DNA of 64,000 nt from a virus (Duplodnaviria > Caudoviricetes), in IMG/VR virus record IMGVR_UViG_3300012665_000475, positions 2,263-66,262 of that record; one strand, written 5' to 3'. The position numbers and the translations under genes are program-made. The notes beneath the pieces were generated by a model that saw only the letters and a program-made list of their open reading frames with translations, was not told the origin of the DNA and did no database searches. This document shows positions 1,445 to 52,623 of the stretch, in pieces. Numbering within the stretch: the first letter of the stretch is position 1; each line of letters starts with the position of its first letter.

Positions 1445-4400
1445 ATGATAGAACTTCAAAGAAATTTTCTTTCGGGGGTAATGAACAAGGACCTTGACCC
1501 CCACTTTTTGCCTGATGGTACATATAGAGATGCACTCAATATTATTGTGGCTGATTCTGACGGAACATTTGTTTCAGAAGAGGGGAGTCACAATGGCGTA
1601 GCTCAAAACTACTTAGGCAATGTTTTAAAGGGAACTGATTACGAGTTAACTAATGCAACGTGTATTGGTTCACTTGCTTATGAGACCAACAATAGTATTT
1701 ATTGGTTAGTTGCATCTGATTATTTAGATGCTATCTACGAATACAATGAAACACTAGATTTAACAACGCCTATTCTTCAGGCCACCAAAACACCTACTAC
1801 GACTTCATTGCTTGGCTTTAACAAGGAGTTCTTTGTTACAGGCATCAATTATATCAACGGGCTACTTTTTTGGACTGACAATCTAAATCCTCCACGCAGG
1901 ATAAATATTGATCGTGCAAAGAATTATGCAGTAGATGGTTTTACTGAAGCTGATATTAATGTAATTTTAGCACCGCCATTAGCGGCACCAACAATTAATT
2001 TATATACACAAGGAGAAGCTAACAACTTAGAGAATAAGTTTCTTTACTTTTCTTATAGATATAAATACTTAGATAATGAGTACAGTGCATTATCTCCATT
2101 TACTCCTGTCGCTTTTTTCCCTAAGCAATACGCTTATGATTATGGTGTGTCAGAGAATGTGTCGATGGTTAACAATTTTAACACTGCCGATATAACATTT
2201 AATTCTGGCCCCGCTAACGTAAAAGAAGTTCAGTTAGTTTTCAGAGATACTCAAAGTACTAATACATATGTAATTGATAACTTAGTTAAATCACTAAACG
2301 ATTACAGTGACAATACAGAGTATTCATACCAATTCAAGAACAATAAAGTATTTACTTTGCTGCCTATTGAACAGGTAAATAGATTATTTGATAATGTACC
2401 AATTAGAGCCAAATCTCAAGAATTAATTGGAAGTAGATTAGTATACGGTAATTACACTCAATTCTTTGATTTAATAAAAGAGAATAAAGAGCCAATAAAT
2501 CCAGCTTTCTCTGTATCATTTATACCTAATTCAGTCGTAGCAGGAACACCTACTCCTACATTCAAGAGTAATAGAGATTACGAAATTGGTATTGTATACT
2601 TAGATGATTACGGCAGAACAACTACTGTAATTACACCTACAGAAAATACTAATACAGTATTTATACCAGCATCGAGTGCTATTAAGGCAAATAATATTCG
2701 AATTACTATTGATGGAACATACCAACCTCCTGCTTTTGCTACTCATTATCGTTTTGTAATTAAGCAAGATAAGCAAGAGTACTACAATTTATTTCCATTG
2801 ACTTATTTTGAAGATGGTCAGTTTAAATGGTTCTTAATTAACCAAGCAGATCAAGACAAAATATCTGTAGGTTCTTATTTGTTTTTAAAAGGTTTATCAA
2901 ATAATACGAATGTACAATACAAAGTATTAGATATTCAATCTAAAAATGCAAACTTTTTAAATACAGCTAATGTAAATCAACCGGCAGGTGTATATTTTAA
3001 AATAAAGATTGATGACGCTGTATTACCACCTATTACATCTTATTCAGATGCCCAAGTAAGTGATAGCTCATCTACAGACACACCTGTTTTTGATAGATTT
3101 AGTGTTGCTGAGAATGCAATATTTTATGGTATAGGTTTAAATGATATGACCACTGGTGCATCAAATGCATATAGTGGTGTAGATGATATTAGATTCTATG
3201 TTCAGATAGATGGTGCAAGCACATTCAAATATTACGCTACGTATAAAGGAACGTATAAAAATCTAGTTGCATCAAATGTAGCTATTACAGCTGGTGTAGA
3301 TCAAGTTTTAACATACTCGGGCCTTAGTTGTTCTATTAATTTTGCTTCAGCAACAGGTCATACAATAGATGATTATTGGGTTGTAAACTGTGTTAGTACA
3401 GGAGGTTATAGTATTTTCGGGGGTTCTACCAACGAAAGCACATTGCTTTACCCTACTGCATTTTTCACGTTTACGGATTGGTCAATAAGCCCATCAAATG
3501 ATGAGGACAGACCAATTAAAGCAGGTGCTATAGTTACCTTTAAATATAAGGAGACTGATAATGCCGACCAGTGGATTACTCAAACATTTATCTCAACAAA
3601 AGACTATGTTAACATAGAGGAGTGGTTTGTTGAAGATTATGTATATAAGAAGTGGATTCAATATGATGGCCAATCTAAAAATTTAGGTGCAAGAAATATT
3701 GTCTTTAGAAGAGGTGTAGCATCTGCTATAAATCCATCTAGAATATCTCAAGGTGGATCTATAAGTACTGCTTCATTAGCTTATCCTGTGTATATGTATT
3801 TCTATACATATCAATCTACAACAAGTGGAGCTAATGTAGACACTAATTTTAATTTGCAGCAATCTGATTATCCATCTTTGTTTGAGACCGTTCCAGTAGA
3901 CACCAACCAAGATATATATTATGAGCTTTCACAAACGTATCCTATTATCGATGGCAATCACTATGGAAATGTTGACAATCAGAATGTTGCATTGGGTGCT
4001 CCGGCGATAGTAGATTTAAATACGCTTGACTTCAACTCAGACTTTAATGCATTTACTTTTGGTAATGGTGTTGAAAGTTTTAGAATTAGAGATGCGTGGA
4101 ATGCTGCAACAATGCAGTTTAGTCCACGTGCTAACTCTACTATTGAGGGTTATGAGCAACAAACCCTAGTTCAAGCTCTTACATATAGTGGTATCTATAC
4201 TGAAACATCTGCAATTAATAGATTAAATGAGTTTAATTTATCGCTTGGTAACTTTAAATATTTAGATAGATTCTTTGGTTCTATTCAAAAATTATTTTCT
4301 CGTGATACAGATTTAATAGTATTACAAGAGAATAAGATATCTAAGGTTCTTTATGGCAAGAATTTATTAAGTGATTCTACAGGAGGAGGGGTTGTTGCAT

Positions 4401-40968: not shown

Positions 40969-41132
40969 TGACAGAAGACGATTTGAAAATAGGAATACTA
41001 AATTCGATAACTCTTATGTTATCGTTCACCACTATAGAGGCTACTCTTCGTGTGGCGTTATTGGCTGTGTCCATAGCGTACACGGGGTTTAAGCTATATA
41101 AACTTATAAAAGAAAGAAAGAAATGGCTTTAA
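40968..41132 (+). CDS. Putative holin (54 aa)
   Basis: MTEDDLKIGILNSITLMLSFTTIEATLRVALLAVSIAYTGFKLYKLIKERKKWL: two short hydrophobic segments and a basic C-terminus; first gene of the lysis block. Confidence 0.55.
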   Translation: MTEDDLKIGILNSITLMLSFTTIEATLRVALLAVSIAYTGFKLYKLIKERKKWL

Positions 41133-41410
41133 TTGACATTTTTAAAGACGATAATGAGATCAACGAAAAGTCGGTTTTAGGTTTCGCATCATTCGTAGTA
41201 TTGGTGGCCTATGGTACAGTTGATATCGTTACAGGTGCAATGCAACAGCAATTTGTTATTGAGCCCATTATTTTAGAGATTTTCGCAGGATTAACTGCAG
41301 CTTGTTTCGGTATCTCAGCATTTGAGAAGGTGAAGAACCGTGAGAACGAGACAGAAAGACAAAAAGCCCTAGGTGGCCAAATCGAGCCATATGAAGAGTC
41401 TGAAGGTTAG
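41123..41410 (+). CDS. Two-TM membrane protein, holin/antiholin-like
   Basis: IFKDDNEINEKSVLGF plus two TM helices and GISAFEK. Confidence 0.6.
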   Translation: MALIDIFKDDNEINEKSVLGFASFVVLVAYGTVDIVTGAMQQQFVIEPIILEIFAGLTAACFGISAFEKVKNRENETERQKALGGQIEPYEESEG

Positions 41411-42005
41411 TATTATTATGTTTGTTGTCAGTATGGTGCTTCTAGTTCTCTTAATGAGAGAAAGAGGCAAGAATGCTGAGGCAAGACCTAACGATACGAT
41501 TACTGTTCACGACACGGCTTGGCAAATTCACGATTCGATTCGTATCAAGAAAGTACCCGTATACAAAGAGGTTATTGTAGAGGTGGCATCCAAACCAGAG
41601 ATGCTACCTGATACAAACTATGCACGCTTGAAAGAGCAGTATATGGCACTTTTAGCGTTGTATCTAAACAAGAAAGCCTATTCTGACACGATTCGTGTAG
41701 GATCATACGGTTATATTGCACTTTTGGATACAATTAAAGAGAATAAAATAGCACATAGACGCACACGTGATAATTTTAATATACCAGTCGTTAAGGAAAC
41801 TAAAACTATTACTAAGTATGCACCACCAGTCCGTCAATTATACGTTGGAGGTGGCGTTATGGTTAACAACACCCTTGGGATAAGAGGTGCAGAAGCTGGC
41901 TTACTCTACAAGACAAAGAAGGATGAGATATATAATATCACAGCCGGAGCAAATCTTGATGGGACAGTAATCTATGGTGTGCATTACTATTATAAACTAA
42001 AGTAA
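41373..42005 (+). CDS. Spanin-like/Rz-like membrane protein (start may be 41391)
   Basis: N-terminal TM, DT(I)-rich periplasmic segment and C-terminal beta strands; directly before the endolysin. Confidence 0.5.
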   Translation: MAKSSHMKSLKVSIIMFVVSMVLLVLLMRERGKNAEARPNDTITVHDTAWQIHDSIRIKKVPVYKEVIVEVASKPEMLPDTNYARLKEQYMALLALYLNKKAYSDTIRVGSYGYIALLDTIKENKIAHRRTRDNFNIPVVKETKTITKYAPPVRQLYVGGGVMVNNTLGIRGAEAGLLYKTKKDEIYNITAGANLDGTVIYGVHYYYKLK

Positions 42006-42006
42006 A

Positions 42007-42846
42007 ATGCTATTAAGAGTTGGATCGACAGGTGATGATGTAAAGAAGCTCCAAGAATTACTTGGCGTAGATGTCATTGGTAAGTTTGGGCCAAAGACTG
42101 AGGCAGCTGTCAAAGGATGGCAAGCGGCTCACGGGCTGACCCCTGACGGGGTGGTTGGTGATGCTACTTGGGCGAAGATGTTCGCACAACCTATTGTTCA
42201 GGCTCCTGCTCCAGCTTTACAACCTGCTGTTCAGAACACTACTTTTAAATTAGATAAGTTAAAAGGTCACGTGCCACAATTTATCTTAGATCAAATCCCT
42301 GATACTGCAACACGTTTTGGTATTACTACACCATTGCGTTTAGCTCACTTTCTTGCTCAATGTGGTCACGAATCAGGAGGCTTTAGAGCATTCTCTGAGA
42401 ACTTAAATTATGGAGCAAAAGGATTGCTATCAATATTCCCAAAATACTTTAAGACTATTGAGAAAGCGAAGGCGTATGAGCGTAAGCCTGAGAAGATTGC
42501 TAACCTAGTCTATGCGAATAGAATGGGTAATGGCGATGAGGCTAGTGGTGATGGATGGAAACATCGAGGAAGAGGTGCTTTACAAACAACAGGTAAATCA
42601 AACTACCAAGATTTTGCTAAGTTTATGAATATGCCTGAGATTTTAACAAATCCAGACTTAGTTGCTACTAAGTACCCATTAGCTTCTGCAGCGTTTTTCT
42701 TTAAGAAGAACAACTTGTGGCCTATTTGCGATAAAGGTAGTTCTCCAGAAGTTGTAACTTTGGTAACTAAAAAGGTGAATGGAGGAATAATCGGTTTGCC
42801 AGATAGACAAAAACATTTTAAAGAATACTATAACCTACTAAGCTAA
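42007..42846 (+). CDS. Endolysin: peptidoglycan-binding domain + GH19 lysozyme
   Basis: G..G.DVK.LQ..L....G.FG..TE.AVK.WQ..HGL..DG.VG..TW (PG_binding_1); LAHFLAQCGHESGG, ENLNY, GDGWKHRGRG.LQ.TG..NY, T..VNGG..GL.DR. Confidence 0.93.
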   Translation: MLLRVGSTGDDVKKLQELLGVDVIGKFGPKTEAAVKGWQAAHGLTPDGVVGDATWAKMFAQPIVQAPAPALQPAVQNTTFKLDKLKGHVPQFILDQIPDTATRFGITTPLRLAHFLAQCGHESGGFRAFSENLNYGAKGLLSIFPKYFKTIEKAKAYERKPEKIANLVYANRMGNGDEASGDGWKHRGRGALQTTGKSNYQDFAKFMNMPEILTNPDLVATKYPLASAAFFFKKNNLWPICDKGSSPEVVTLVTKKVNGGIIGLPDRQKHFKEYYNLLS

Positions 42847-42971
42847 TGGCAAAAGCAAAATCATCAACCGAAGCAAAGAAAATTACATTCGGAGTTAGAA
42901 GAAAAGGAAAACACGCTAAGACGTCTGGACCAAAAGATAAAAGAACTAAACGTAGTAGAGGACAAGGCTAA
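42846..42971 (+). CDS. Small Lys/Arg-rich protein (41 aa)
   Basis: MAKAKSSTEAKKITFGVRRKGKHAKTSGPKDKRTKRSRGQG. Confidence 0.6.
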   Translation: MAKAKSSTEAKKITFGVRRKGKHAKTSGPKDKRTKRSRGQG

Positions 42972-42973
42972 AC

Positions 42974-43441
42974 TTGTCCTTTTTTAATATGAAATTATTA
43001 ATTGCTTTTTTTGTATTAATTCAATACTTACCTATCACGGTTGCTCCTGTAGAAAATAAAGTTCAAATAGGAACTGTAGCCGGCAATAGAAATATTGAGT
43101 TTGGTGTTAAAAATATTCTTGAAGAATACTTACAAGAACAAGGACACGATGTGTCTGATGATGCAGTTAATCAGATTAAAGTTGAAATACTTTATTTTGA
43201 TGTTATTAAGACTCAATCTAATTTATCTGTGTTCCATCGCAATAGTGATGCGGTTGTAATCCGTATGCGTGGTAAATTAATCAACAACGGTAAGGTTGTG
43301 AAGACAGTTATTGTAGAAGAGTCAGCAGAAGAAGTATCGATGGCTACTCTTTTAATTGACGAAGGAGGTAAATTTAATCAAACTAATTTAAGTTCAGCTT
43401 TAAAGAAAACTTGTAACACTTTGATTAACAAACTTCTATAA
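42974..43441 (+). CDS. Exported protein, CsgG/TolB-N-like alpha/beta fold (short paralog of 45854-46561)
   Basis: Hydrophobic N-terminus; GVKNILEEYL and ATLL.D.G.KFNQ...SALKK align with the CsgG-like gene. Confidence 0.5.
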   Translation: MSFFNMKLLIAFFVLIQYLPITVAPVENKVQIGTVAGNRNIEFGVKNILEEYLQEQGHDVSDDAVNQIKVEILYFDVIKTQSNLSVFHRNSDAVVIRMRGKLINNGKVVKTVIVEESAEEVSMATLLIDEGGKFNQTNLSSALKKTCNTLINKLL

Positions 43442-45189
43442 TGAAACACCTAATTCTTGTTACCTTTTTATGTGTATTTGTAACAAACACTTATGCTCAA
43501 ACGGTAAAACTTTATTTCCCTAATGACACCAACAATGTCAATACGAGGGGAACTGTAATTAACAAAGGGGATACGCTGAATGTAGAAGTGCACGCAGACG
43601 GTAATGGTAATCTAACCACTCGTGCTTTGTACTTTGACTTTGAGTACCCTAATAATGCCTTGCAATTAATTAATGTAACCAACTCTAATACCATCTTGCC
43701 TGCTAACTCTCAGGCAACAATGAGCTATTATACTTACCCTGGTTATTCTTGGCAATCTACGTCGGCCAATAGTGTTACTGATGGTAATGCTCGTTATTAC
43801 AATTCATCCTATACGTACACGCAAGGTGGCACAAAGACTATTCTTAGAGTTTACCTAAACTGGTCAGTTAACCAAGGTGGCTTAGGTGTGGGTAAGTTAT
43901 TGAACTTAAAGTATAAGTTGAAGACGGATGCACAGGGGTATTCTTGGGATCCTATTAGAATGAACTTTGCTGCAGCATATAATCAGAATGGAACAGATGG
44001 CTCAACATTAATGACTACTCCGTTAACGAGTGTTATTATGCTTGACCCTACGGCCAGTAAATACGTTACAGCAAGTATTGGTAACAATGCTAACGTAGAT
44101 GAATTTAGTTTACACAGAGTAGCATTTACTGATTCAGTTACAAACCAAACTTATCTAGTGGATGCTTTGTCAGATGGAAGTATCCCAGTTGACCAAACTA
44201 GATTCCAACCCAATACAGTATACCACGTCCGTGTTATGTTTAATATGGACAGCATCAAGGACTTAGCAACAGCGGCAGTTACTGTATCTGACTACACCAC
44301 AGCACAAGCTGAGTTTGTGACACAGAACCTAGATGCTACATTTAAGAATCAATCTATTATCACAGGGATGGGGTATTTTGCCGCAGACGTGAATAGAAAT
44401 AAGTTGTTTGATGGAGGTGACTTGGTGAGGTTATTCTCGCACGTATCAGGAGTAGATAACTTGGTTACATTACCGACAGGCTACTCAGCTGGCACAGATA
44501 TGTATATGAGTGCTCCAACATTTACAGAGGCTGAGTTTAATGCAGCCTCCGCATCTTCTTGGAAGGACATTACTAAAAACTATGTTCGATTTAAGACAGG
44601 AGTGATTGGAGAGAACTTGCCATTAAAATTACGTTTTGTGATTCCTGGTGATATTAACCGTAGCCATAGCTCTCAGGTTATTATTAATAATGCGATTGCG
44701 ACTAATGCAATTCCTAGTTTAAAGAAAAACTTTAATGCATCTAAAACAGCAAAGTTACTGATCAACACGCCTGATGGGATTAGTGTAAGTTTAAAGAATG
44801 CAACGATTACTTCTAGTACGATCGATATTCCTGTTAAAATTAACACTAATACGAAACAAGTGTCTGCGTTGCAGTTTGAGTTTACTTATGACCCGACTAA
44901 GGTTAAGTTTGAGCAACTTATTAATGAGGTGCCCAATACTTGGTATACTTTTGTGGATAACAAAGAGGGCAAGGTTAGATTTGGCTCATTAGACAAAGAG
45001 TTAAAGACTCCTATCTCAGGAGAATCTACTCCATTCAAATTACGCTTTAGCTCAATAGGTAATCCTTTGGATATCAATACTTATATCAAAGTAACTCCTA
45101 ATATGGATGCGAGCTCTAAGACTGGCTACCAATTAGGCATTAATTTATCAACCGACTCGATCAAGTTGACGGGTTATAATAACTTCTAA
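43441..45189 (+). CDS. Secreted cohesin/dockerin-like domain protein
   Basis: Signal peptide MKHLILVTFLCVFVTNTYA|Q; N- and C-terminal cohesin-like domains (GDTLNVEV...LYFDFEYPNNALQL; IDIPVKI...VSALQFEFTYDPTKVKF); dockerin/EF-hand loop ADVNRNKLFDGGD. Confidence 0.7.
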   Translation: MKHLILVTFLCVFVTNTYAQTVKLYFPNDTNNVNTRGTVINKGDTLNVEVHADGNGNLTTRALYFDFEYPNNALQLINVTNSNTILPANSQATMSYYTYPGYSWQSTSANSVTDGNARYYNSSYTYTQGGTKTILRVYLNWSVNQGGLGVGKLLNLKYKLKTDAQGYSWDPIRMNFAAAYNQNGTDGSTLMTTPLTSVIMLDPTASKYVTASIGNNANVDEFSLHRVAFTDSVTNQTYLVDALSDGSIPVDQTRFQPNTVYHVRVMFNMDSIKDLATAAVTVSDYTTAQAEFVTQNLDATFKNQSIITGMGYFAADVNRNKLFDGGDLVRLFSHVSGVDNLVTLPTGYSAGTDMYMSAPTFTEAEFNAASASSWKDITKNYVRFKTGVIGENLPLKLRFVIPGDINRSHSSQVIINNAIATNAIPSLKKNFNASKTAKLLINTPDGISVSLKNATITSSTIDIPVKINTNTKQVSALQFEFTYDPTKVKFEQLINEVPNTWYTFVDNKEGKVRFGSLDKELKTPISGESTPFKLRFSSIGNPLDINTYIKVTPNMDASSKTGYQLGINLSTDSIKLTGYNNF

Positions 45190-45190
45190 G

Positions 45191-45553
45191 ATGAATAGAC
45201 TTATTATAGTATTATTTTTGTTATTCGTAATTTCGTGTGAAGAAATTAGCGTAGTTGAGCAGCCAATTAATCTAGGCGTTGAGTCTAAGGTAATGGTTGT
45301 TAACTCAGCAGTTGTTAAAGACAACGTGTTACACGTTAGCATTGCTACTACACCAGGTGCTAAGTATTTACTAGAAGTATATACTTTTGGAGGCAAGGAG
45401 CCTGTGAAGAAGTTAGGATTTACTGCAGATGCAAATGTTAGCAATAAAAGTATCCAAATGGATACACTTAAGAAGGGAATGTATGATTTAAAGATAATTA
45501 ACATCTCAGGAGAAGAAGTTAAAAGACCAATTAACCACAATAATTATTTATAA
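45191..45553 (+). CDS. Lipoprotein consisting of a T9SS C-terminal sorting-domain-like fold
   Basis: Lipobox FVIS|C; LEVYTFGG.......SIQMDTLKKGMYDLKI matches the IYD..G.....id...L..G.Y.l.i CTD signature. Confidence 0.55.
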   Translation: MNRLIIVLFLLFVISCEEISVVEQPINLGVESKVMVVNSAVVKDNVLHVSIATTPGAKYLLEVYTFGGKEPVKKLGFTADANVSNKSIQMDTLKKGMYDLKIINISGEEVKRPINHNNYL

Positions 45554-45554
45554 A

Positions 45555-45860
45555 ATGTCAGAAGAAAAAGAAGGAGGCTCAATCAAAGGGGCTATTATCG
45601 GAGGAGTAACATTGCTTATTACAACCGTCACAGGTGTGGTGGCTACTAAGTTTGAGTCAATCTTTGGAGACAAAGAAGAACCAAAGACTGAGGTGGTGCA
45701 ACCTGCTGCACAGCCGCAGCAGATTGTTATCAACAATTCACAGCCTCAGCAAGCATCAAGCAGAGGCACTAAGACTGTCATTGTTAAGGAGAAGGCTGCA
45801 GCAGAAAAGCCAAAGCCTAAGACTGCTAAAGAAGAAATGGAAGAAGCACCAAAATGGTAA
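45555..45860 (+). CDS. Single-TM membrane protein with low-complexity tail
   Basis: TM IIGGVTLLITTVTGVVA followed by a Gln/Pro/Lys/Glu-rich segment ending APKW. Confidence 0.6.
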   Translation: MSEEKEGGSIKGAIIGGVTLLITTVTGVVATKFESIFGDKEEPKTEVVQPAAQPQQIVINNSQPQQASSRGTKTVIVKEKAAAEKPKPKTAKEEMEEAPKW

Positions 45861-46561
45861 GATGGAGTATTTGCTTATTGCTATTGTCGTTGTCATCTTA
45901 TGGGCAGATTGCCACGACCAAAACGGAGGCTTATCAAGCTAGTTTTGAGAAGAAGATTAATATCGATTCATTGATGGACTATGATGGTCCTAAGATTCCT
46001 ATTCAATTACTATCGATTGGAATCAATGAGGATATATACGCTTCCTATCCAGAACTAAAAGATAAGCGTGTAGGATTAGGTGTGACTAATATTGTGGTTG
46101 AGTTCTTAGAAGAGACTAACCGCTTCACATTTACGGAGGATAAGGCTGAGATTAAGAACCGTATGGTTAAGCAGTTTCAGGCTAGTCAGGCAGGTATATC
46201 AGAGAACAAGCTAGACGGACGTGGCAAGATTAAACTTGCTCAGTACTTTGTTTACATCGAGTGCTATGACTTTTCTGTTAGTGAAGACGAGTCCATTAGT
46301 TTAAAAGATGGTGCCAAGCAAACAGTAGTAACAAGACTTGGCTTGCAGGTTAAGTTCGTAAATGCTGAGACAGGAGAATACTTTACAGGTTCAGGATTAG
46401 GTGAGGCTAAAACTACACGTGAGGCTACGTTAATGAATGATGGTAACTTTGCGGAAATTAAATTTAATCAATCCACTATAGGCACAACGACTAAGAAAGC
46501 GTTGGAGAATGCTGCTAGTAAAATTATTGTGCGGATGATTAAAAAGAAAATCTTTAAATGA
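45854..46561 (+). CDS. CsgG/HfaB-family (curli-assembly channel-like) protein
   Basis: Signal peptide; GVTNIVVEFL.ETNRF..., AQYFVY....DF, LGLQVKFVNAETGE...GSG.G motifs typical of CsgG-like proteins. Confidence 0.7.
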   Translation: MVRWSICLLLLSLSSYGQIATTKTEAYQASFEKKINIDSLMDYDGPKIPIQLLSIGINEDIYASYPELKDKRVGLGVTNIVVEFLEETNRFTFTEDKAEIKNRMVKQFQASQAGISENKLDGRGKIKLAQYFVYIECYDFSVSEDESISLKDGAKQTVVTRLGLQVKFVNAETGEYFTGSGLGEAKTTREATLMNDGNFAEIKFNQSTIGTTTKKALENAASKIIVRMIKKKIFK

Positions 46562-47709
46562 AATGGATAGTATTTATAGCCATACTTATCTTACCCACGA
46601 TTATGTACGCACAAACACTTACACAGGTGTTCGTGGATCCGTGCAGTGGCAAGGTAACAACTGTAGTGGTACCGCTCGCTGGTGGCAAGACTACCGTGGT
46701 TTACCGAGGGCAGTACAAGGTAGTGACGGCAAACGATATTACAAGTGGAGCTCTGCAAGCGTGGATAAATGAGTTAACAGTTAACTTCCCTTGTCCTCAG
46801 GCTACGATTGCGGTAACACAAACAGTAGCAAGTGCTGTATCTCAAGCAGTAGCAGCAGCAACAACAGCGGCAACAGCAACAGCAACAAGTGCAGCTACAT
46901 CAGCAGCAACCTCTGCGGCCACAGCGGCAGCAGCACCTGCACCGGTAGCAGAAACAAAGACTGAGGCACCTGCAGTAGAAAGTAAATCAGAAACTAAAAC
47001 AGAATCTAAAAGTGAAGAAAAAAGCGAGTCCAAGTCCGAAAAGAAAAGCGAGAGTAAAGCCAAGTCGTCTTCGTCAAATCCAATTATTTATTCTTCGGAT
47101 TTTACGGTCGCTCCGACTAGTGAAGTAACATCTATTATTGCTAGTGTTGGGATGAGTCAAGCCTCCTTGATGGGCAACTCATCGTGGGGCATTAACTCTA
47201 TGATATGGTCAACCTTCAACCAATTCGCACTAGGAGCCAGATATACTTTGATGAATTTTAATCAAGGTAAGTTAGAGTCCATCTCAAACTTTGGCGTTAC
47301 AGGCGTTTATTTAAGTGGAAATGTGTTAGGCTTCGCAACGGCTGCTTACATCGTCCCTATGGGCAAGTATGGTACCACAGGAGCCAACTATACTTTATCG
47401 GTTGCAGGAGCAAACGATGAGGCTAACATATCCAACAATATATTACTATTCTACACCGTACCTATCAAGATAAATAAGTACGTATCAATTAGTCCTGACT
47501 TATACGTGTCAGGATCATCAACAGGCTATCTAACCAGGCAGAAAGTATTTGTGACTAGTAACGATATAGGCATTCTAACGGGTGCCTCATTTGATATTGC
47601 ACTAACCAAACGCTTCAAGTTTAACTTTGCATTAAAGACAGGTGTTAATACTAATCCTGCTGTTCCTCAGTCCTATCTTGGGATGATAGGCACCAAAATT
47701 AATTTATAA
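46558..47709 (+). CDS. Putative outer-membrane beta-barrel protein with N-terminal disulfide domain and low-complexity stalk
   Basis: Signal peptide; DPC...FPC pair; Ala/Thr then Glu/Lys/Ser linker; C-terminal ~200 aa of alternating amphipathic strands ending YLGMIGTKINL. Confidence 0.55.
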   Translation: MKWIVFIAILILPTIMYAQTLTQVFVDPCSGKVTTVVVPLAGGKTTVVYRGQYKVVTANDITSGALQAWINELTVNFPCPQATIAVTQTVASAVSQAVAAATTAATATATSAATSAATSAATAAAAPAPVAETKTEAPAVESKSETKTESKSEEKSESKSEKKSESKAKSSSSNPIIYSSDFTVAPTSEVTSIIASVGMSQASLMGNSSWGINSMIWSTFNQFALGARYTLMNFNQGKLESISNFGVTGVYLSGNVLGFATAAYIVPMGKYGTTGANYTLSVAGANDEANISNNILLFYTVPIKINKYVSISPDLYVSGSSTGYLTRQKVFVTSNDIGILTGASFDIALTKRFKFNFALKTGVNTNPAVPQSYLGMIGTKINL

Positions 47710-47720
47710 GTTCTTTTTCG

Positions 47721-47728
47721 TATTTTTG
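47721..47728 (+). promoter_or_regulatory. Bacteroidota -7 box (TATTTTTG)
   Basis: 26 nt before the tail fibre ATG. Confidence 0.55.
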
Positions 47729-47754: not shown

Positions 47755-50700
47755 ATGGCAAGAATACAAACATACCCGAATGACGTATACGTAACGGGGA
47801 ATGATAAATGGATTGGATCCGACGCTAACAACGACTTCATAACCAAAAACTTTACAGCAAACGCTGTTGCCGATTATTTCAATCGTGTAGGTATTATCGA
47901 TACAGGTAGTTTCAACTGGTCATACAGAATGTATGCCCCGACAGAATCTCAGCCTGCTAAGACGTTTGAGTTAATTGACCATCCATTTGATACAGTAGAT
48001 GTTATTGGACTTGCAGGAACCATCAAGGTTTCATTCTTGACAATGGCTAATACCGAGCCAGGTATCTTCATTGAGCAGGCTTGGTTAGATAAAATCATTC
48101 TTGTTAATCGTCCAGGATTCCCTAGTGAGTACGGATTATATAAAGTAACTGCTGTTGTTGAAGATGGTGATTACTATTTCTTAGACTTAGATTTCATTGG
48201 TGGCCATTCAGGTATTGTTAACGAAGATGAGCCAGTTACATTTGGATTATTCTCAGGGGTAAGTGGCACATCGGGTACAACAGGTACCTCAGGAACTTCT
48301 GGAACCACAGGAACATCTGGCACTAGTGGAACAGATGGCACATCAGGTTCTTCAGGAACTACAGGCACATCAGGTTCATCGGGAACGGATGGTACAAGTG
48401 GATCTTCAGGTACAACAGGAACATCAGGTTCTTCAGGTACAGGTGGTACATCAGGAACTTCAGGAACAAACGGTTCAGACGGTACGTCAGGTACACGTGG
48501 TACGTCAGGTACTTCAGGTATTGACGGCATCGACGGAACAGATGGTACGTCAGGGACTAGTGGAACAGACGGAACAGGAGGTACTTCAGGTACTAATGGT
48601 TCAGCTGGTACATCTGGTACAGATGGTACAGGTGGTACTTCGGGAATAGATGGAACAAGTGGTTCTAGCGGTACAGGAGGAACTAGTGGTTCAAGTGGAA
48701 TTAACGGTACCTCAGGTACAGGAGGAACCAGTGGTACAGATGGTACAGGAGGAACCTCAGGTACTGATGGCACAGGGGGAACTTCAGGTACATCGGGCTC
48801 AAGTGGCTCATCAGGCATTGATGGTACTTCAGGTACAGGAGGAACAAGTGGAACATCAGGTACAGACGGTACTGGTGGAACATCAGGGACTAATGGTACT
48901 GGAGGAACGTCGGGCACTAGTGGAGAGTCAGGAACTTCAGGCACAACAGGTACTAGTGGTACAGGTGGTGTTGATGGAACGTCAGGTACATCAGGTGAAA
49001 ATGGTGTATCTAATAACTTATTCTTATATCAAGCACACACAACAAGTCAATCAGGATATCCTGGAAACGGTCATATTCTTTGGAATAATGCTACACAGAT
49101 AAGTTCAACTCAAATTAATATCAGTCATCTTACTGACAATGGCATTGATATTGATATCTTTTTAGCGTTGCTTCAAGATTTGCAACAAATTACTATTCAA
49201 GATAGAAATAGTTCTGCCAACTATCAAATCTGGGATGTTAACGGAACACCAACACAAGTAACAGGTGCTAATAATTATTGGATAGTACCTGTTGTTTTAA
49301 TATCATCAGCTGGTACAGGCACAACAAATTTTGCTAATAACCATCCATTATTCTTAGCGATTGTATCTCAATCAGGTACATCAGGAGTTAACGGAACATC
49401 AGGAACTAGTGGTACTACAGGCACATCAGGTACAGGTGGAACATCAGGTGTGTCAGGAAGCTCAGGCACTTCAGGAGCTGACGGTACTAGCGGAGTTAGT
49501 GGTACATCAGGTGTGAGTGGTACATCAGGAGTAGATGGTACAAGTGGGGTTAATGGAACTAGTGGATCATCAGGATTAAGTGGTACTAGTGGTAGTTCAG
49601 GAGCAAGTGGAACCTCAGGTGTATCAGGTACATCAGGTATTAACGGAACCTCAGGTGTTGATGGTACTTCAGGATTAAGCGGTACCTCAGGAACATCAGG
49701 TATTAACGGAACATCTGGAACAACTCCAGTTGGTCAAATTACGGGTACGTTGACAGCAAATTATGTTCCTCTTGCAACAGGTACAAATACAATTGGAAAT
49801 AGTAAAATAAGCCAACCTGATTCAAATAATATAAAAGTAAATTTTGCTGATACATATTCCCAGGGGACAATGTTTACTTATGTTTCTACATATGTAAGCA
49901 AATTATTAATAGGCAGAACAAATGATGCGGTAGGTGCAGCAGGTAGTAATGTTGATTTAATATATGATATAGAAGGTGCTGAGATATTTGAAATTAGAAG
50001 AAATTATTCTTCAAATACATTTAAGGTTACGCTTAATAATGGAACATCTGTTGTAACTCATTTAAGTATTGCAAATACGGGTGCTGCTACATTTAATAGT
50101 ACATTACAAACAGGTGGTAATATAAATTTAGTTGCAAGTTCTGGTGCTTTAGTTCTTACAAACACGGCATCATCGAATAAGAGATGGGATATTTCAAGTA
50201 ATGGTAATGATTTTACAATAAATGAAACAGGCGTTGCTGAAACAATGCGTATTGCAGCAGGAGGTGCTTCTACTTTTAGTAATAATATAACAATTACTAA
50301 TGTTGGAAGACCATATTTTATTGCTAAGACAACAAATTCAGGAGAAGAAGCAGGTATAAAAATACAACAATCAACTGTTTCAGATTGGTATATTGGTACT
50401 GCTCAAGGTACTCCATCTGCTAATGACTTAGCAATTAGAGATGTAAAGAATGGTAGAATACCATTATATTTTGCTGCTTCTTCAGGAGCCGCTACTTTCT
50501 CAAGTAGTGTTACTACAGGAGGTAATATAACCACAACTCCATCTTCTGCAGGATTCTATGTTTATGGCTCCATACCTGTTGCTAGGTATTCATACTTTGG
50601 TTATTCATCAGGTTACAATGGTGTTTTAGTAGGAAGTACTGCAGGTCAAACATTGTTCTTTAATGTTGATGTAACAGGGAATCCAAGTGGAGCATTTAGT

Positions 50701-52623
50701 GGTGCTGGTCAAGAATATGTGTGGCGAAATGCAGGTTCATTTATTACTCCAAATTCAGTAAATAATGGTTACAACACTTTATTCAGTTGGAATTCTGCTG
50801 GTGCATTAACTATTCCAGGTTCAACATCAATTGGAAGTTTAGTTACAAGCTCCTTACAAATTGGTGATTACACAGGTAACCCATCATTAACCCTTGCTGC
50901 TGCTAATAATGGTTTTAGTAAAATAAATTTCTATGACCAAAATACAACAGAAGGTTTGTACCTAAGAACAGATGGTGAAACCTATGGTGGAACTATGACC
51001 TTTGGTGCAAGATGGGATGATGATGAGGCGAAGATTGTATTTAAGATGTATCAAACATCTGCAGGAGCTGGATATAATGCAAGAGTAGGAATTGGTACAA
51101 CTGATCCTGCAGGCGAGTTAACTGTTAAAAGAGGTTATAGTAGTTCGTTTACCCCTGCATATATTGGTAATACTTCTTATACTGCTTGGAATAGACAAGT
51201 ATATGATACATTTGTTTTACAACAAGATGATGTAACATCATTCAGAATGGTTGAAAAGAATGGAGAAGCAAATACATCTGACCAAGTATTATCATTTAGT
51301 GTTGGTGATGGGTTTGCAAGAATTTCATCATCTGCACAACCAATGCAATTTTATGTAAATGGTAGCCCATCAGGATTAGCATATCAAGGATTAAGTGGAA
51401 CATTAGCACTATCTATTGCTACATCAGGAGCTTCTACATTTTCAAATAGTACTGAATCTACTAGATGGTATATTACACCAAGTGGAACGAGTCAACTTTA
51501 TAATATAGTTAATTCTGATAATTCATATGCAGGATCTTATACAATGCAAGCTGGTGGGGGATCATCGGGATATGGAGGTTCTATAACAGTTTGGGGTCAT
51601 TCTCACGCTTCTAGAGCAGGTTATGTTTCAGCAGGGATAAGTGCAAGTAGTGGTGGTAGATTTACTGTAATGAGTCAAGCAATTGGGAATGGTACAGATC
51701 TGTTTTCTGTTTGCTCTAGTGCTAATGTTTTAATAGGCACTACAACAGATGCAGGGTATAGATTATATGTAAGTGGCCAAACAATAGCAGTAAACAATGG
51801 AGCAACAGCTGAATTAAGATTACAAGGTGGAGGATACGGTGGAAGTTATAACACATCATTAAGGTCACAAACAGGGGCAAGTGGTATATTACAATTTGGC
51901 AATAATGGCGTTAATTACGTTTTAATTGGAACTACAAATACGGGAGGTTACTTAGACTTCAGAACAAATTGCAATTCTGAAAGTACATCTTCGGGTACTT
52001 TTGTTATGCGAATGAGTGCTGGAGGTAATGTTGGAATAAATGTCGACCCTGGATATAAGCTAGATGTAGATGGTGGCAATATAACTGGAGCAGCGTTTCG
52101 TGCTACTAAACAAGCATCTTCTGGTGACGGACTAGTTGCATACTTTACAAATAGCTCTAATAACGGGTATTCTTCATACATTTACATAGGTTCTAATCCA
52201 GGTACTGACTGGAAAATTGGTAAAAATATCTCAAATCCAACAGGAGCAACTTACCATTTTGAGATTGTTGATAGTAGCAACAATATTAGAATGCAGATTA
52301 ATAACGGTACAGGTAATGTTACTTTTACAGGTTCTGTATATGCTCCGTCATTTTTCGAAAGCTCTGATGCTACGATTAAGACTTTAATTGAAGATAACTA
52401 TCAGACTAAGGGAATTGAATCTGTAGTAGCTAAGTTGTATATTAAGAATGGGAAAGAAGAACTTGGTTACTATGCACAAGATGTACAAGGTATATTGCCA
52501 AGTGCGGTAAGTAGAGCAGAGAATGGATTATTAAATCTTTCTTATCGTGAAGTTCATACAGCTAAGATTGCAAGACTTGAGAAACGTGTGGCAGAATTAG
52601 AGCAACAATTAAATTTAAACTAA
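47755..52623 (+). CDS. Tail fibre with collagen-like Gly-Thr-Ser repeats and C-terminal intramolecular chaperone (peptidase S74-like)
   Basis: MARI.TY..D...D.WIGSD anchor; two G-X-Y tracts; GIGTT-type fibre repeats; ESSD..IK...LGY.AQDVQ.ILP.AV...L.Y......IA.LE..V.ELE. Confidence 0.85.
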   Translation: MARIQTYPNDVYVTGNDKWIGSDANNDFITKNFTANAVADYFNRVGIIDTGSFNWSYRMYAPTESQPAKTFELIDHPFDTVDVIGLAGTIKVSFLTMANTEPGIFIEQAWLDKIILVNRPGFPSEYGLYKVTAVVEDGDYYFLDLDFIGGHSGIVNEDEPVTFGLFSGVSGTSGTTGTSGTSGTTGTSGTSGTDGTSGSSGTTGTSGSSGTDGTSGSSGTTGTSGSSGTGGTSGTSGTNGSDGTSGTRGTSGTSGIDGIDGTDGTSGTSGTDGTGGTSGTNGSAGTSGTDGTGGTSGIDGTSGSSGTGGTSGSSGINGTSGTGGTSGTDGTGGTSGTDGTGGTSGTSGSSGSSGIDGTSGTGGTSGTSGTDGTGGTSGTNGTGGTSGTSGESGTSGTTGTSGTGGVDGTSGTSGENGVSNNLFLYQAHTTSQSGYPGNGHILWNNATQISSTQINISHLTDNGIDIDIFLALLQDLQQITIQDRNSSANYQIWDVNGTPTQVTGANNYWIVPVVLISSAGTGTTNFANNHPLFLAIVSQSGTSGVNGTSGTSGTTGTSGTGGTSGVSGSSGTSGADGTSGVSGTSGVSGTSGVDGTSGVNGTSGSSGLSGTSGSSGASGTSGVSGTSGINGTSGVDGTSGLSGTSGTSGINGTSGTTPVGQITGTLTANYVPLATGTNTIGNSKISQPDSNNIKVNFADTYSQGTMFTYVSTYVSKLLIGRTNDAVGAAGSNVDLIYDIEGAEIFEIRRNYSSNTFKVTLNNGTSVVTHLSIANTGAATFNSTLQTGGNINLVASSGALVLTNTASSNKRWDISSNGNDFTINETGVAETMRIAAGGASTFSNNITITNVGRPYFIAKTTNSGEEAGIKIQQSTVSDWYIGTAQGTPSANDLAIRDVKNGRIPLYFAASSGAATFSSSVTTGGNITTTPSSAGFYVYGSIPVARYSYFGYSSGYNGVLVGSTAGQTLFFNVDVTGNPSGAFSGAGQEYVWRNAGSFITPNSVNNGYNTLFSWNSAGALTIPGSTSIGSLVTSSLQIGDYTGNPSLTLAAANNGFSKINFYDQNTTEGLYLRTDGETYGGTMTFGARWDDDEAKIVFKMYQTSAGAGYNARVGIGTTDPAGELTVKRGYSSSFTPAYIGNTSYTAWNRQVYDTFVLQQDDVTSFRMVEKNGEANTSDQVLSFSVGDGFARISSSAQPMQFYVNGSPSGLAYQGLSGTLALSIATSGASTFSNSTESTRWYITPSGTSQLYNIVNSDNSYAGSYTMQAGGGSSGYGGSITVWGHSHASRAGYVSAGISASSGGRFTVMSQAIGNGTDLFSVCSSANVLIGTTTDAGYRLYVSGQTIAVNNGATAELRLQGGGYGGSYNTSLRSQTGASGILQFGNNGVNYVLIGTTNTGGYLDFRTNCNSESTSSGTFVMRMSAGGNVGINVDPGYKLDVDGGNITGAAFRATKQASSGDGLVAYFTNSSNNGYSSYIYIGSNPGTDWKIGKNISNPTGATYHFEIVDSSNNIRMQINNGTGNVTFTGSVYAPSFFESSDATIKTLIEDNYQTKGIESVVAKLYIKNGKEELGYYAQDVQGILPSAVSRAENGLLNLSYREVHTAKIARLEKRVAELEQQLNLN
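48256..49010 (+). repeat. Collagen-like (G-T-S / G-T-D / G-T-G)n tract 1
   Basis: Uninterrupted Gly every third codon. Confidence 0.9.
49372..49724 (+). repeat. Collagen-like (G-T-S / G-V-S)n tract 2
   Basis: Second G-X-Y tract after a ~120-aa globular insert. Confidence 0.9.

Follow-up and report, generated by a model that had tools for sequence, protein, structure and literature searches.

What does a phage gain from six proteins that all carry signals for export to, or insertion into, the envelope of its host? The question is raised by a stretch of 64,000 nucleotides (in the following "the window"), which covers 64 kb of a complete IMG/VR virus record of 66,262 bp with direct terminal repeats (IMGVR_UViG_3300012665_000475) and encodes a terminase, a portal, large virion proteins, GroEL, ribonucleotide reductase and a primase-helicase. 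At 42974–47709, six open reading frames (ORFs), here designated g1 to g6, follow each other on the plus strand, their ends overlapping or separated by no more than one base. The analysis described below establishes this block, or cassette, as a phage-borne, selected and mobile set of envelope proteins. As to its purpose, the reading preferred here, to which we give a probability of about one half, is that it would build an envelope complex which places binding proteins linked to the type IX secretion system (T9SS) on the dying cell, the surface of which would thus be re-dressed at lysis; sequence and predicted structure are what this reading is built on.

A conserved and selected block of envelope genes

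The original prediction, made from the letters of the window, had described six tightly coupled genes between the endolysin block and a tail fiber gene, and both the coordinates and the neighbors were borne out. It had also seen export or membrane signals on all six products. By hydropathy and visual inspection these are indeed present: N-terminal hydrophobic signal sequences in g1, g2, g5 and g6, a lipobox in g3 and a transmembrane helix in g4. The signal sequences of g2, g5 and g6 finish in YAQ or YGQ, which we take to match the pattern of a glutamine following the cleavage site in Bacteroidota. Pfam, NCBIfam and PHROG contain no significant match for g1, g4, g5 or g6, nor for two optional genes (of 112 and 192 amino acids, aa).

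Homologs of the cassette were collected by scanning IMG/VR with g5, which yielded 118 confirmed relatives; for the best 80 of these (contigs of 5–148 kb) gene order was determined by tblastn with all neighbors, blastp on the called ORFs also recovering g4. The order g1-g2-g3-(g4)-g5-g6 is found in most of these best 80 loci, so that the genes do co-occur in related phages, as had been expected; over IMG/VR as a whole, the ordered block is present in more than 100 phage contigs (17–148 kb). In the cultured Flavobacterium phage vB_FspM_immuto (160 kb; "immuto" below) the core order is cohesin gene (the g2 homolog)-g4-g5-g6, then a g1-like gene, and a gene for a C-type lectin lies two genes upstream of the cohesin gene. 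Among cultured phages only the immuto phages carry g5 together with the cohesin gene; no match to the cassette DNA turned up in 50,697 cultured phage records, nor any to the g6 protein in cultured phages. Relatives are far more numerous outside cultures: a search with g5 of 1.84 billion cluster representatives recovered a compact family of 242, and in metagenomes 5,770 clusters are related to it (both at E ≤ 0.001).

The most conserved gene of the block is g5. Its protein identity among relatives amounts to 69–96%, while four-fold degenerate sites are only 24–49% identical, that is, saturated, as they are in the neighboring genes. The combination of a conserved protein with saturated four-fold sites indicates strong purifying selection, and recent horizontal transfer as the cause of the high identity was rejected for the same reason. 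At the same distances, protein identity is 31–88% for g2 and 33–77% for g3; with g5 kept and g2 and g3 diverging, the block consists of a conserved frame and a fast-changing part. Since the same six-gene order recurs in most loci and g5 is under selection, the six ORFs are real genes rather than chance reading frames.

The products of the six genes

The exported, 235-aa product of g5 (45854–46561, plus strand) is, to judge from family profiles and a predicted fold, a divergent member of the CsgG/HfaB family of ring-forming outer-membrane proteins, which agrees with the earlier assignment. The protein alone has no match in Pfam. The profile of its family matches E. coli CsgG (8.1e-7, positions 1–184), 17 of 36 relatives match the Pfam family CsgG (PF03783; best 1.9e-17) and 8 match LpoB, and one distant member of the cluster is named CsgG/HfaB family protein by NCBI. 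The structures of g5 and g6 are AlphaFold2 (AF2) monomer models, compared by VIA-align and Foldseek. The g5 model, with a predicted local distance difference test (pLDDT) score of 85, superimposes on CsgG chains with Z 13.0–13.8 and a root-mean-square deviation (rmsd) of 2.6–3.3 over 167–190 residues, above all other folds; Cj1090c, PelC, FlgT, LptE and TraT (Z 8.4) come after CsgG, and Foldseek gives CsgG with E 6e-7.

How far the likeness to CsgG extends to function is a different matter. In CsgG, each subunit contributes two transmembrane hairpins to the 36-stranded pore of a nonamer. The first of these is present in g5 (residues 131–170) and long, though charged and not as long as its CsgG counterpart. 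The position of the second is taken by a loop of ~14 residues (pLDDT 62–68), and the profile match to CsgG ends before that hairpin. The proposal of a CsgG secretion pore is therefore doubtful for g5, given how few residues are left in the region of the second hairpin. A lipobox is absent from g5 and its close phage relatives, the signals of which end in YGQ or AQ; more distant relatives are lipoproteins with LxGC. Some distant relatives, named CsgG/HfaB, reside on contigs of 357–423 kb, the close ones on contigs of at most ~134 kb. A scan of genome contigs with one distant homolog yielded one locus, from Chitinispirillum and at the end of its contig, which was left out of the analysis. A metagenomic protein of 4,047 aa (P0214) was also encountered in which 18 separate stretches match g5 residues 173–222; it is a giant repeat protein made from a piece of a CsgG-like fold.

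The prediction had counted two CsgG-like proteins in the block, the other one being the product of g1 (42974–43441, plus strand), an exported protein of ~130 aa in its mature form. While g5 holds up, g1 does so poorly. What it has is a weak YajG/LptE-like similarity: the match to PF03923 (2.5e-4) is below the cut-off, and those of 8 of its 22 relatives are likewise sub-threshold. Alignment of the g1 and g5 families by hhalign yields a probability of 22% over 34 columns, which amounts to one shared C-terminal motif, FNQ[ST]...KK, and the g1 family profile found nothing significant among PDB sequences. The protein is nevertheless conserved among its relatives. Its start codon is probably ATG 42989 rather than TTG 42974, because the latter lies inside a hairpin followed by a U-run (see below) and the corresponding protein in the ESM Atlas begins at residue 6.

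The longest product is that of g2 (43441–45189, plus strand), an exported protein of 582 aa with two cohesin modules. Pfam Cohesin (PF00963) matches it with 43.3 bits (cut-off 24.1; 5e-11) in two stretches; taken alone, the C-terminal module scores 33 bits (8e-8) and the N-terminal one 23.3 bits (8e-5), just under the cut-off. Between the N-terminal cohesin-like module and the C-terminal cohesin module lies a central region with an EF-hand-like loop, D316-x-N318...D324-G-G-D327, which is invariant in the family alignment. A further motif, GD(I/V)N..HSS, is 88 residues off, which is not dockerin spacing, and the central 240 residues have no match to type I Dockerin (PF00404), the mark of which is a duplicated calcium-binding repeat of 22 residues, at E values up to 1. 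Of the cohesin-dockerin protein originally proposed, the cohesin half thus stands, and the dockerin half reduces to a single EF-hand-like loop; a canonical cohesin-dockerin pair within g2 was rejected on these grounds.

In this phage g2 lacks the C-terminal domain (CTD) that directs proteins to T9SS. Its homologs in two other loci (L047, L079) and in immuto (gp015) have such a domain at their end, with scores above the Pfam cut-off (34.6–38.3 bits). The gene which follows here, g3 (45191–45553, plus strand), encodes a lipoprotein of 120 aa with a CTD-like beta-sandwich as its only domain. Its lipobox, VISC, is followed by EE, and the lipobox Cys16 is invariant in the alignment. Unlike CTDs at the C-terminus of Sec-exported cargo, the domain stands alone behind the lipobox. 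Compared directly with domain models, g3 stays sub-threshold: 18.7 bits against a cut-off of 27 for Por_Secre_tail (PF18962; 2e-3) and 17.7 bits against a cut-off of 23 for TIGR04183, with 4 of 19 relatives reaching ~2e-3; the family profile, too, matched nothing significant among PDB sequences. It is the comparison with the g2-fused CTDs that is telling (hhalign 89%, E 2.3e-6, 69 columns), together with the distribution of the two forms. In the 76 loci with a g2 homolog, a CTD fused to g2 occurs without g3 in 12 and a separate g3 without fused CTD in 63, both never occur together and one locus has neither; the models used were built partly from the same sequences, which does not affect this mutual exclusion. 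From the homology and from the exclusive occurrence, g3 is by sequence the detached sorting domain of the cohesin protein, placed behind a lipobox, and its designation as a T9SS-CTD-like lipoprotein is confirmed. No other case of a CTD separated in the form of a lipoprotein is known to us.

Of the two remaining proteins, g4 (45555–45860, plus strand) is the transmembrane anchor that had been foreseen, a single-pass membrane protein of 101 aa with an acidic N-terminus, one helix (residues 9–32), a Pro/Ala/Gln-rich tail and an invariant C-terminal P-[KQ]-W. The exported, 383-aa product of g6 (46558–47709, plus strand) is composed of a two-cysteine head (20–76), an Ala/Thr-rich helix (80–124), a disordered stalk rich in Ser, Glu and Lys (125–175) and a barrel (176–383). 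In its family the pair of cysteines in the ~60-residue head is invariant, the segment after the head is rich in Ala, Thr and Gln, the stalk varies from ~50 to 200 residues and the C-terminal domain of 205 residues is conserved. The AF2 model of the barrel (pLDDT 70–82) aligns by VIA-align with NalP (Z 24.1, rmsd 2.4 over 224 residues), with EspP, EstA, AIDA-I and BrkA (Z 19.5–21.5), with KdgM (Z 20.2, rmsd 1.8 over 166 residues) and with FapF (Z 19.4); Foldseek and the Atlas likewise return outer-membrane barrels, so that the predicted beta-barrel is found again at the C-terminus of g6. The alignment with NalP, over residues 72–383, includes the helix, which the model puts in the barrel lumen at a pLDDT below 50, with 50 disordered residues in between. 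Going by the model, the two-cysteine head of g6 is tethered to an outer-membrane barrel with 12 strands, of the autotransporter/KdgM/FapF class.

Lysis genes, a sister phage and the possible role of the block

The genes upstream of the cassette bear on what it may do. The first of them, gm2 (41123–41410, plus strand), encodes a protein of 95 aa with two hydrophobic segments and a charged C-terminus, as judged by hydropathy; it is called holin-like, a label which here, as "spanin-like" below, refers to topology only. Homologs of gm2 sit directly upstream of g5 in other loci. The next gene, gm1 (41373–42005, plus strand), overlaps gm2 by 38 nt, stops 1 nt before the endolysin gene and specifies an envelope protein of 210 aa, the N-terminus of which contains a transmembrane segment while the C-terminus is rich in strands. 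This C-terminus is rich in Gly and aromatic residues, homologs in L018, L027 and L054 carry a lipobox, and gm1 is a possible outer-membrane-interacting lysis protein. Neither gm1 nor gm2 has a significant match in Pfam, NCBIfam or PHROG. The endolysin (42007–42846, plus strand) has a peptidoglycan-binding domain and a GH19-like catalytic domain (Pfam PG_binding_1 3e-13; phrog_181 1.3e-64). Its stop codon overlaps the start (TAATG) of a very basic ORF of 41 aa (42846–42971, plus strand) with the pattern MAKAKSS..KKI.FG.RRKGKH...RGQG, which has no significant match in PHROG, NCBIfam or Pfam and is conserved, though with substitutions, in over 45 related loci, among them one that lacks the cassette (L087, see below). 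It could be a cationic, disruptin-like lysis peptide, although amphipathicity is not obvious.

Between the lysis genes and g1, a terminator-like hairpin with a U-run (42957–42988, plus strand; −15.6 kcal/mol, z −4.2) has its 5′ arm in the final codons of the 41-aa ORF. The structure is kept in seven phages (this one, L004, L005, L008, L009, L018 and L039; z −2.2 to −4.2) with differing stem sequences; it is absent in L087, L010 and L037. This hairpin probably acts as a terminator or attenuator that separates the lysis genes from the cassette and, as the space from it to g1 is too short for a promoter, the cassette must be expressed by read-through from upstream. Downstream of the cassette follows the gene of a collagen-like tail fiber of 1,622 aa (47755–52623, plus strand). 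The sequence TATTTTTG (47721–47728, plus strand), 27 nt upstream of the fiber start and identified by pattern match only, resembles what we take to be a promoter element of the Bacteroidota type; as such it may mark the end of the cassette transcription unit. The Gly-Thr-Ser collagen-like repeats of the fiber give rise to long open frames, both on the other strand and in further reading frames, and a 256-aa "PVP" ORF (48174–48944, minus strand) was rejected as a gene since it is a by-product of the fiber repeat.

In most loci the cassette is found near an endolysin or holin-like gene, in varied arrangements: as here, with holin-like gene, gm1 and endolysin upstream of the block; with the holin-like gene between g4 and g5 (L047 type); with the endolysin gene between g5 and g6 (L067–L077); or with a divergent endolysin gene adjoining g1 (L079, L105 and L124 types). 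Not all related phages carry the cassette. A close sister phage, L087 (IMGVR_UViG_3300028025_001202), shares gm2 (98% identity), gm1 (83%), the endolysin (77%) and the fiber (86%) and is without g1 to g6, and many phages with a 60–65% identical endolysin have no cassette within 10 kb; the block is for this reason an accessory module of phages of the Flavobacterium type (Bacteroidota), one that adjoins lysis genes. In L087 the slot (2033–3004) is occupied by genes for a protein of 94 aa with a transmembrane segment and a coiled-coil-like region and for one of 138 aa with a signal peptide and a C-terminal transmembrane segment, a pair that appears spanin-like by topology and has no significant match in PHROG, NCBIfam or Pfam. 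Homologs of this pair were found in 5 loci, all beside an endolysin gene and none with g5, and none of 113 g5 loci has the pair. Upstream of the pair, L087 has a 47-aa ORF resembling the N-terminus of the g1 ORFs of other phages, and downstream an HNH endonuclease gene that is also present in L004.

Other loci enlarge the cassette. Eleven of them have the 112-aa gene inserted between g5 and g6; its product combines a transmembrane segment with a coiled coil. Others add exported payload in the form of C-type lectin and GEVED-domain proteins. A frequent extra that is absent from the window is a protein of ~190 aa (L018:6405–6983 and homologs upstream of g5) with hydrophobic, probably membrane, segments, tandem DxDxDG motifs resembling calcium loops and a Cys-rich end.

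Three circumstances are the strongest clues to function: the block is accessory, its slot is filled by spanin-like genes in the sister phage, and the cohesin protein is T9SS cargo elsewhere. In the reading we prefer, the six genes would act late in infection, when their products would assemble into a multi-protein complex within the envelope of the infected cell. The frame would consist of g4 in the inner membrane, g5, with or without g1, at the periplasmic face of the outer membrane, and g6 in the outer membrane; the fast-evolving pair of g2 and g3 would be the payload that is placed on or into the outer surface, in other phages along with C-type lectin and GEVED proteins, and would be exported via the Sec, lipoprotein and T9SS routes of the host. 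Re-dressing the surface with binding modules at lysis could mask receptors and thereby keep out superinfecting phages; masking might alternatively spare the progeny from sticking to debris, or the purpose could be to make infected cells stick to neighboring cells or particles. Such re-dressing is preferred because the T9SS signal, the acidic residues after the lipoprotein cysteine and the cohesin and lectin modules all point to the surface, and because the payload evolves fast and the frame does not. Several points weigh against it. The terminator-like hairpin immediately before g1 leaves the timing and the level of expression ambiguous; the loss of the CTD from g2 makes the destination of the cohesin protein of this phage ambiguous as well; we know of no mode of action for a lipidated CTD that stands alone; and the closeness to lysis genes, with spanin-like genes in the slot of the sister phage, would equally suggest a role in lysis.

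The last point leads to a proposal which we consider rather unlikely, namely that the cassette replaces spanins and breaches the outer membrane as the final act of lysis: g4, by its extended tail, and g6, by its long tether and two-cysteine head, would bridge the periplasm through the wall, with a g5 ring in the link, and the membranes would be ruptured or fused once the endolysin has acted. The position of the block directly after the holin-like gene, gm1, the endolysin gene and the 41-aa ORF speaks for it, as do the holin-like or endolysin genes inside or divergently beside the block in other phages, and in particular the two genes of spanin-like topology in the L087 slot, the homologs of which never occur together with g5. 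This exclusivity, however, derives from 5 loci and from genes that are spanin-like by topology with no PHROG match, and the alternatives are not strict ones, as the 112-aa gene carried by 11 cassette loci is itself like an inner-membrane spanin. Moreover, T9SS-tagged cohesin, lectin and GEVED proteins have no obvious role in membrane rupture, the outer-membrane step could also be the work of gm1 or of the cationic 41-aa ORF, both of which occur whether or not the cassette is there, and in immuto the block is 8 kb away from the endolysin gene, among genes of nucleotide metabolism. A bolder reading, which we regard as unlikely and put forward tentatively, is that Bacteroidota phages have a third route of release through the outer membrane beside spanins and disruptin-type peptides, a trans-envelope machine of six to eight proteins with a CsgG-like ring and a barrel of the autotransporter class, in which the T9SS signal, supplied in trans as a lipoprotein, would serve to put cohesin and lectin proteins on the surface.

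It is improbable that the cassette forms a channel akin to those of curli (type VIII secretion system, T8SS) or Fap, with g5, g6 or both opening a pore that exports g2 or the g4 tail or passes small molecules. To be sure, CsgG is what g5 resembles most, g6 matches 12-stranded barrels that translocate proteins (autotransporters, FapF), the g2 of this phage has no CTD and would need another exit, and pore roles have been proposed for published phage clusters with CsgG and CsgF (PMC9004378, PMC9599517). An open pore like that of curli is made less likely by the reduced hairpin region of g5 described above; no gene for CsgF, CsgE or curlin repeats was recognized in the family searches of the window, phages whose g2 uses T9SS still keep g5 and g6, and 12-stranded barrels are common, so that a shared fold does not reveal function. 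Hardly credible is the idea that the six products are virion or tail-accessory components which merely adjoin the tail fiber gene. The block does adjoin the collagen-like fiber here, and cohesin modules belong to the Ig-like domains, a type with which virions are decorated as well; yet every one of the six products has a signal of the Sec, lipoprotein or membrane type, cytoplasmic assembly would have no use for a lipobox, a T9SS CTD or an outer-membrane barrel, none of the six has a significant match among the structural families of PHROG, and the fiber is not a constant neighbor (the block is followed by replication genes in L010, and immuto differs as well). A lysogenic-conversion locus was also considered and is not obvious, no tyrosine integrase having been found in the complete genome (serine recombinases were not searched for).

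Whichever way it is used, the cassette must pay its way, because it takes up 7% of the 66-kb genome, g5 is among the most constrained proteins and its metagenomic relatives number in the thousands. How phages of Bacteroidota pass or alter the outer membrane is poorly known, and their hosts account for a major share of the breakdown of organic matter in lakes, seas and guts. If the preferred re-dressing of the surface, by receptor masking or by gluing cells, holds true, models of superinfection, of phage loss to debris and of particle formation in blooms would change; if the block replaced spanins, it would represent a new lysis mechanism. The T9SS sorting domain that has been split off into a lipoprotein is in any case a natural experiment on how this signal works, and a cultured pair of host and cassette-bearing phage exists, Flavobacterium sp. 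LMO8 and phage immuto.

Comparison with known systems

Searches of the literature for Flavobacterium phage cohesin, CsgG with endolysin, phage-encoded T9SS and phage Por_Secre_tail retrieved no description or test of the cassette, and it is best placed by its likeness to several better-known systems. Cargo of T9SS is held at the cell surface by outer-membrane barrels, examples being PorU-PorV and PorZ-PorQ of the attachment complex and pairs of the SprB-SprF type, and CTD-like beta-sandwich domains can anchor non-covalently to barrels. Similarly, the protein with a type A CTD (12 loci, immuto gp015) is encoded beside an outer-membrane barrel. Unlike PorV and PorQ, however, which are FadL-like and 14-stranded, g6 is modeled as a barrel of the 12-stranded autotransporter/KdgM/FapF class; the best T9SS entry for its model, 8gl6_F, reaches Z 12.6 as compared to 24 for NalP. 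With type Va autotransporters (NalP, EspP, EstA) g6 shares, in its predicted structure, the C-terminal 12-stranded barrel (Z 19–24), a preceding helix and an N-terminal extension, and with FapF the succession of N-terminal domain, flexible linker and barrel. There is no sequence similarity to either (5–10% identity), a disordered stalk of 50–200 residues separates helix and barrel, the "passenger" would comprise only ~60 residues, and the position of the helix in the lumen is unreliable at its low pLDDT.

Like spanins (lambda Rz/Rz1, T1 gp11) and the disruptin of phage phiKT (gp28), the cassette sits after the endolysin gene; like spanins, it combines an inner-membrane protein with outer-membrane proteins, and the slot in the sister phage holds genes of spanin-like topology. 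It differs from them in size (six genes and 4.7 kb as opposed to one or two small genes) and in carrying surface-binding modules. Furthermore, g4 has a Pro/Gln-rich tail instead of a coiled-coil periplasmic domain, the outer-membrane partner is a barrel instead of a small lipoprotein, the lipoprotein that is present, g3, has the CTD fold, and no single cassette protein has both anchors; homology of the cassette proteins to spanin families, including those of PHROG, was not found. By analogy, the cassette may also be likened to surface-exclusion proteins such as Llp of T5, Cor of T1 and phi80 and the plasmid-encoded TraT, envelope proteins encoded by phages or a plasmid that change the cell surface so as to keep incoming rivals off. 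The fold of g5 recurs in TraT at a low level, with a Z within the range of common folds, and all three are, in contrast to the cassette, single small lipoproteins with known targets.

The closest precedent is offered by phages of SAR11 and OM43 bacteria. Clusters with CsgG and CsgF have been described in pelagimyophages (PMC7029224), and full T8SS modules are shared across families of pelagiphages (PMC9599517), where curli clusters encode CsgG, CsgF and CsgA/B along with FecR, a kinase and an adenylate cyclase (PMC9599517, PMC7029224); in the OM43 phage Melnitz, CsgG and CsgF have been proposed to be linked to lysis (PMC9004378). Superinfection defense, aggregation, uptake and control of lysis have been put forward as roles of the pelagiphage clusters. 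The statement in the original prediction that no characterized phage system has such an architecture must hence be tempered: multigene CsgG clusters borne by phages are on record (PMC9599517, PMC7029224, PMC9004378). Both the cassette and the pelagiphage clusters are multigene, phage-borne blocks of exported envelope proteins around a member of the CsgG family, both are kept as a unit, and both are common to unrelated phage lineages and abundant in aquatic viromes. Unlike its counterparts, the cassette has neither CsgF nor CsgA/B, FecR, kinase or cyclase, and its hosts are Bacteroidota; g5 lacks the lipobox and probably the second transmembrane hairpin, its partners are a T9SS-linked cohesin protein, a CTD lipoprotein, a single-pass membrane protein and a 12-stranded barrel, and the block is tied to lysis genes. 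What the cassette shares with the clusters of pelagiphages is thus only the CsgG-family member and the general logic.

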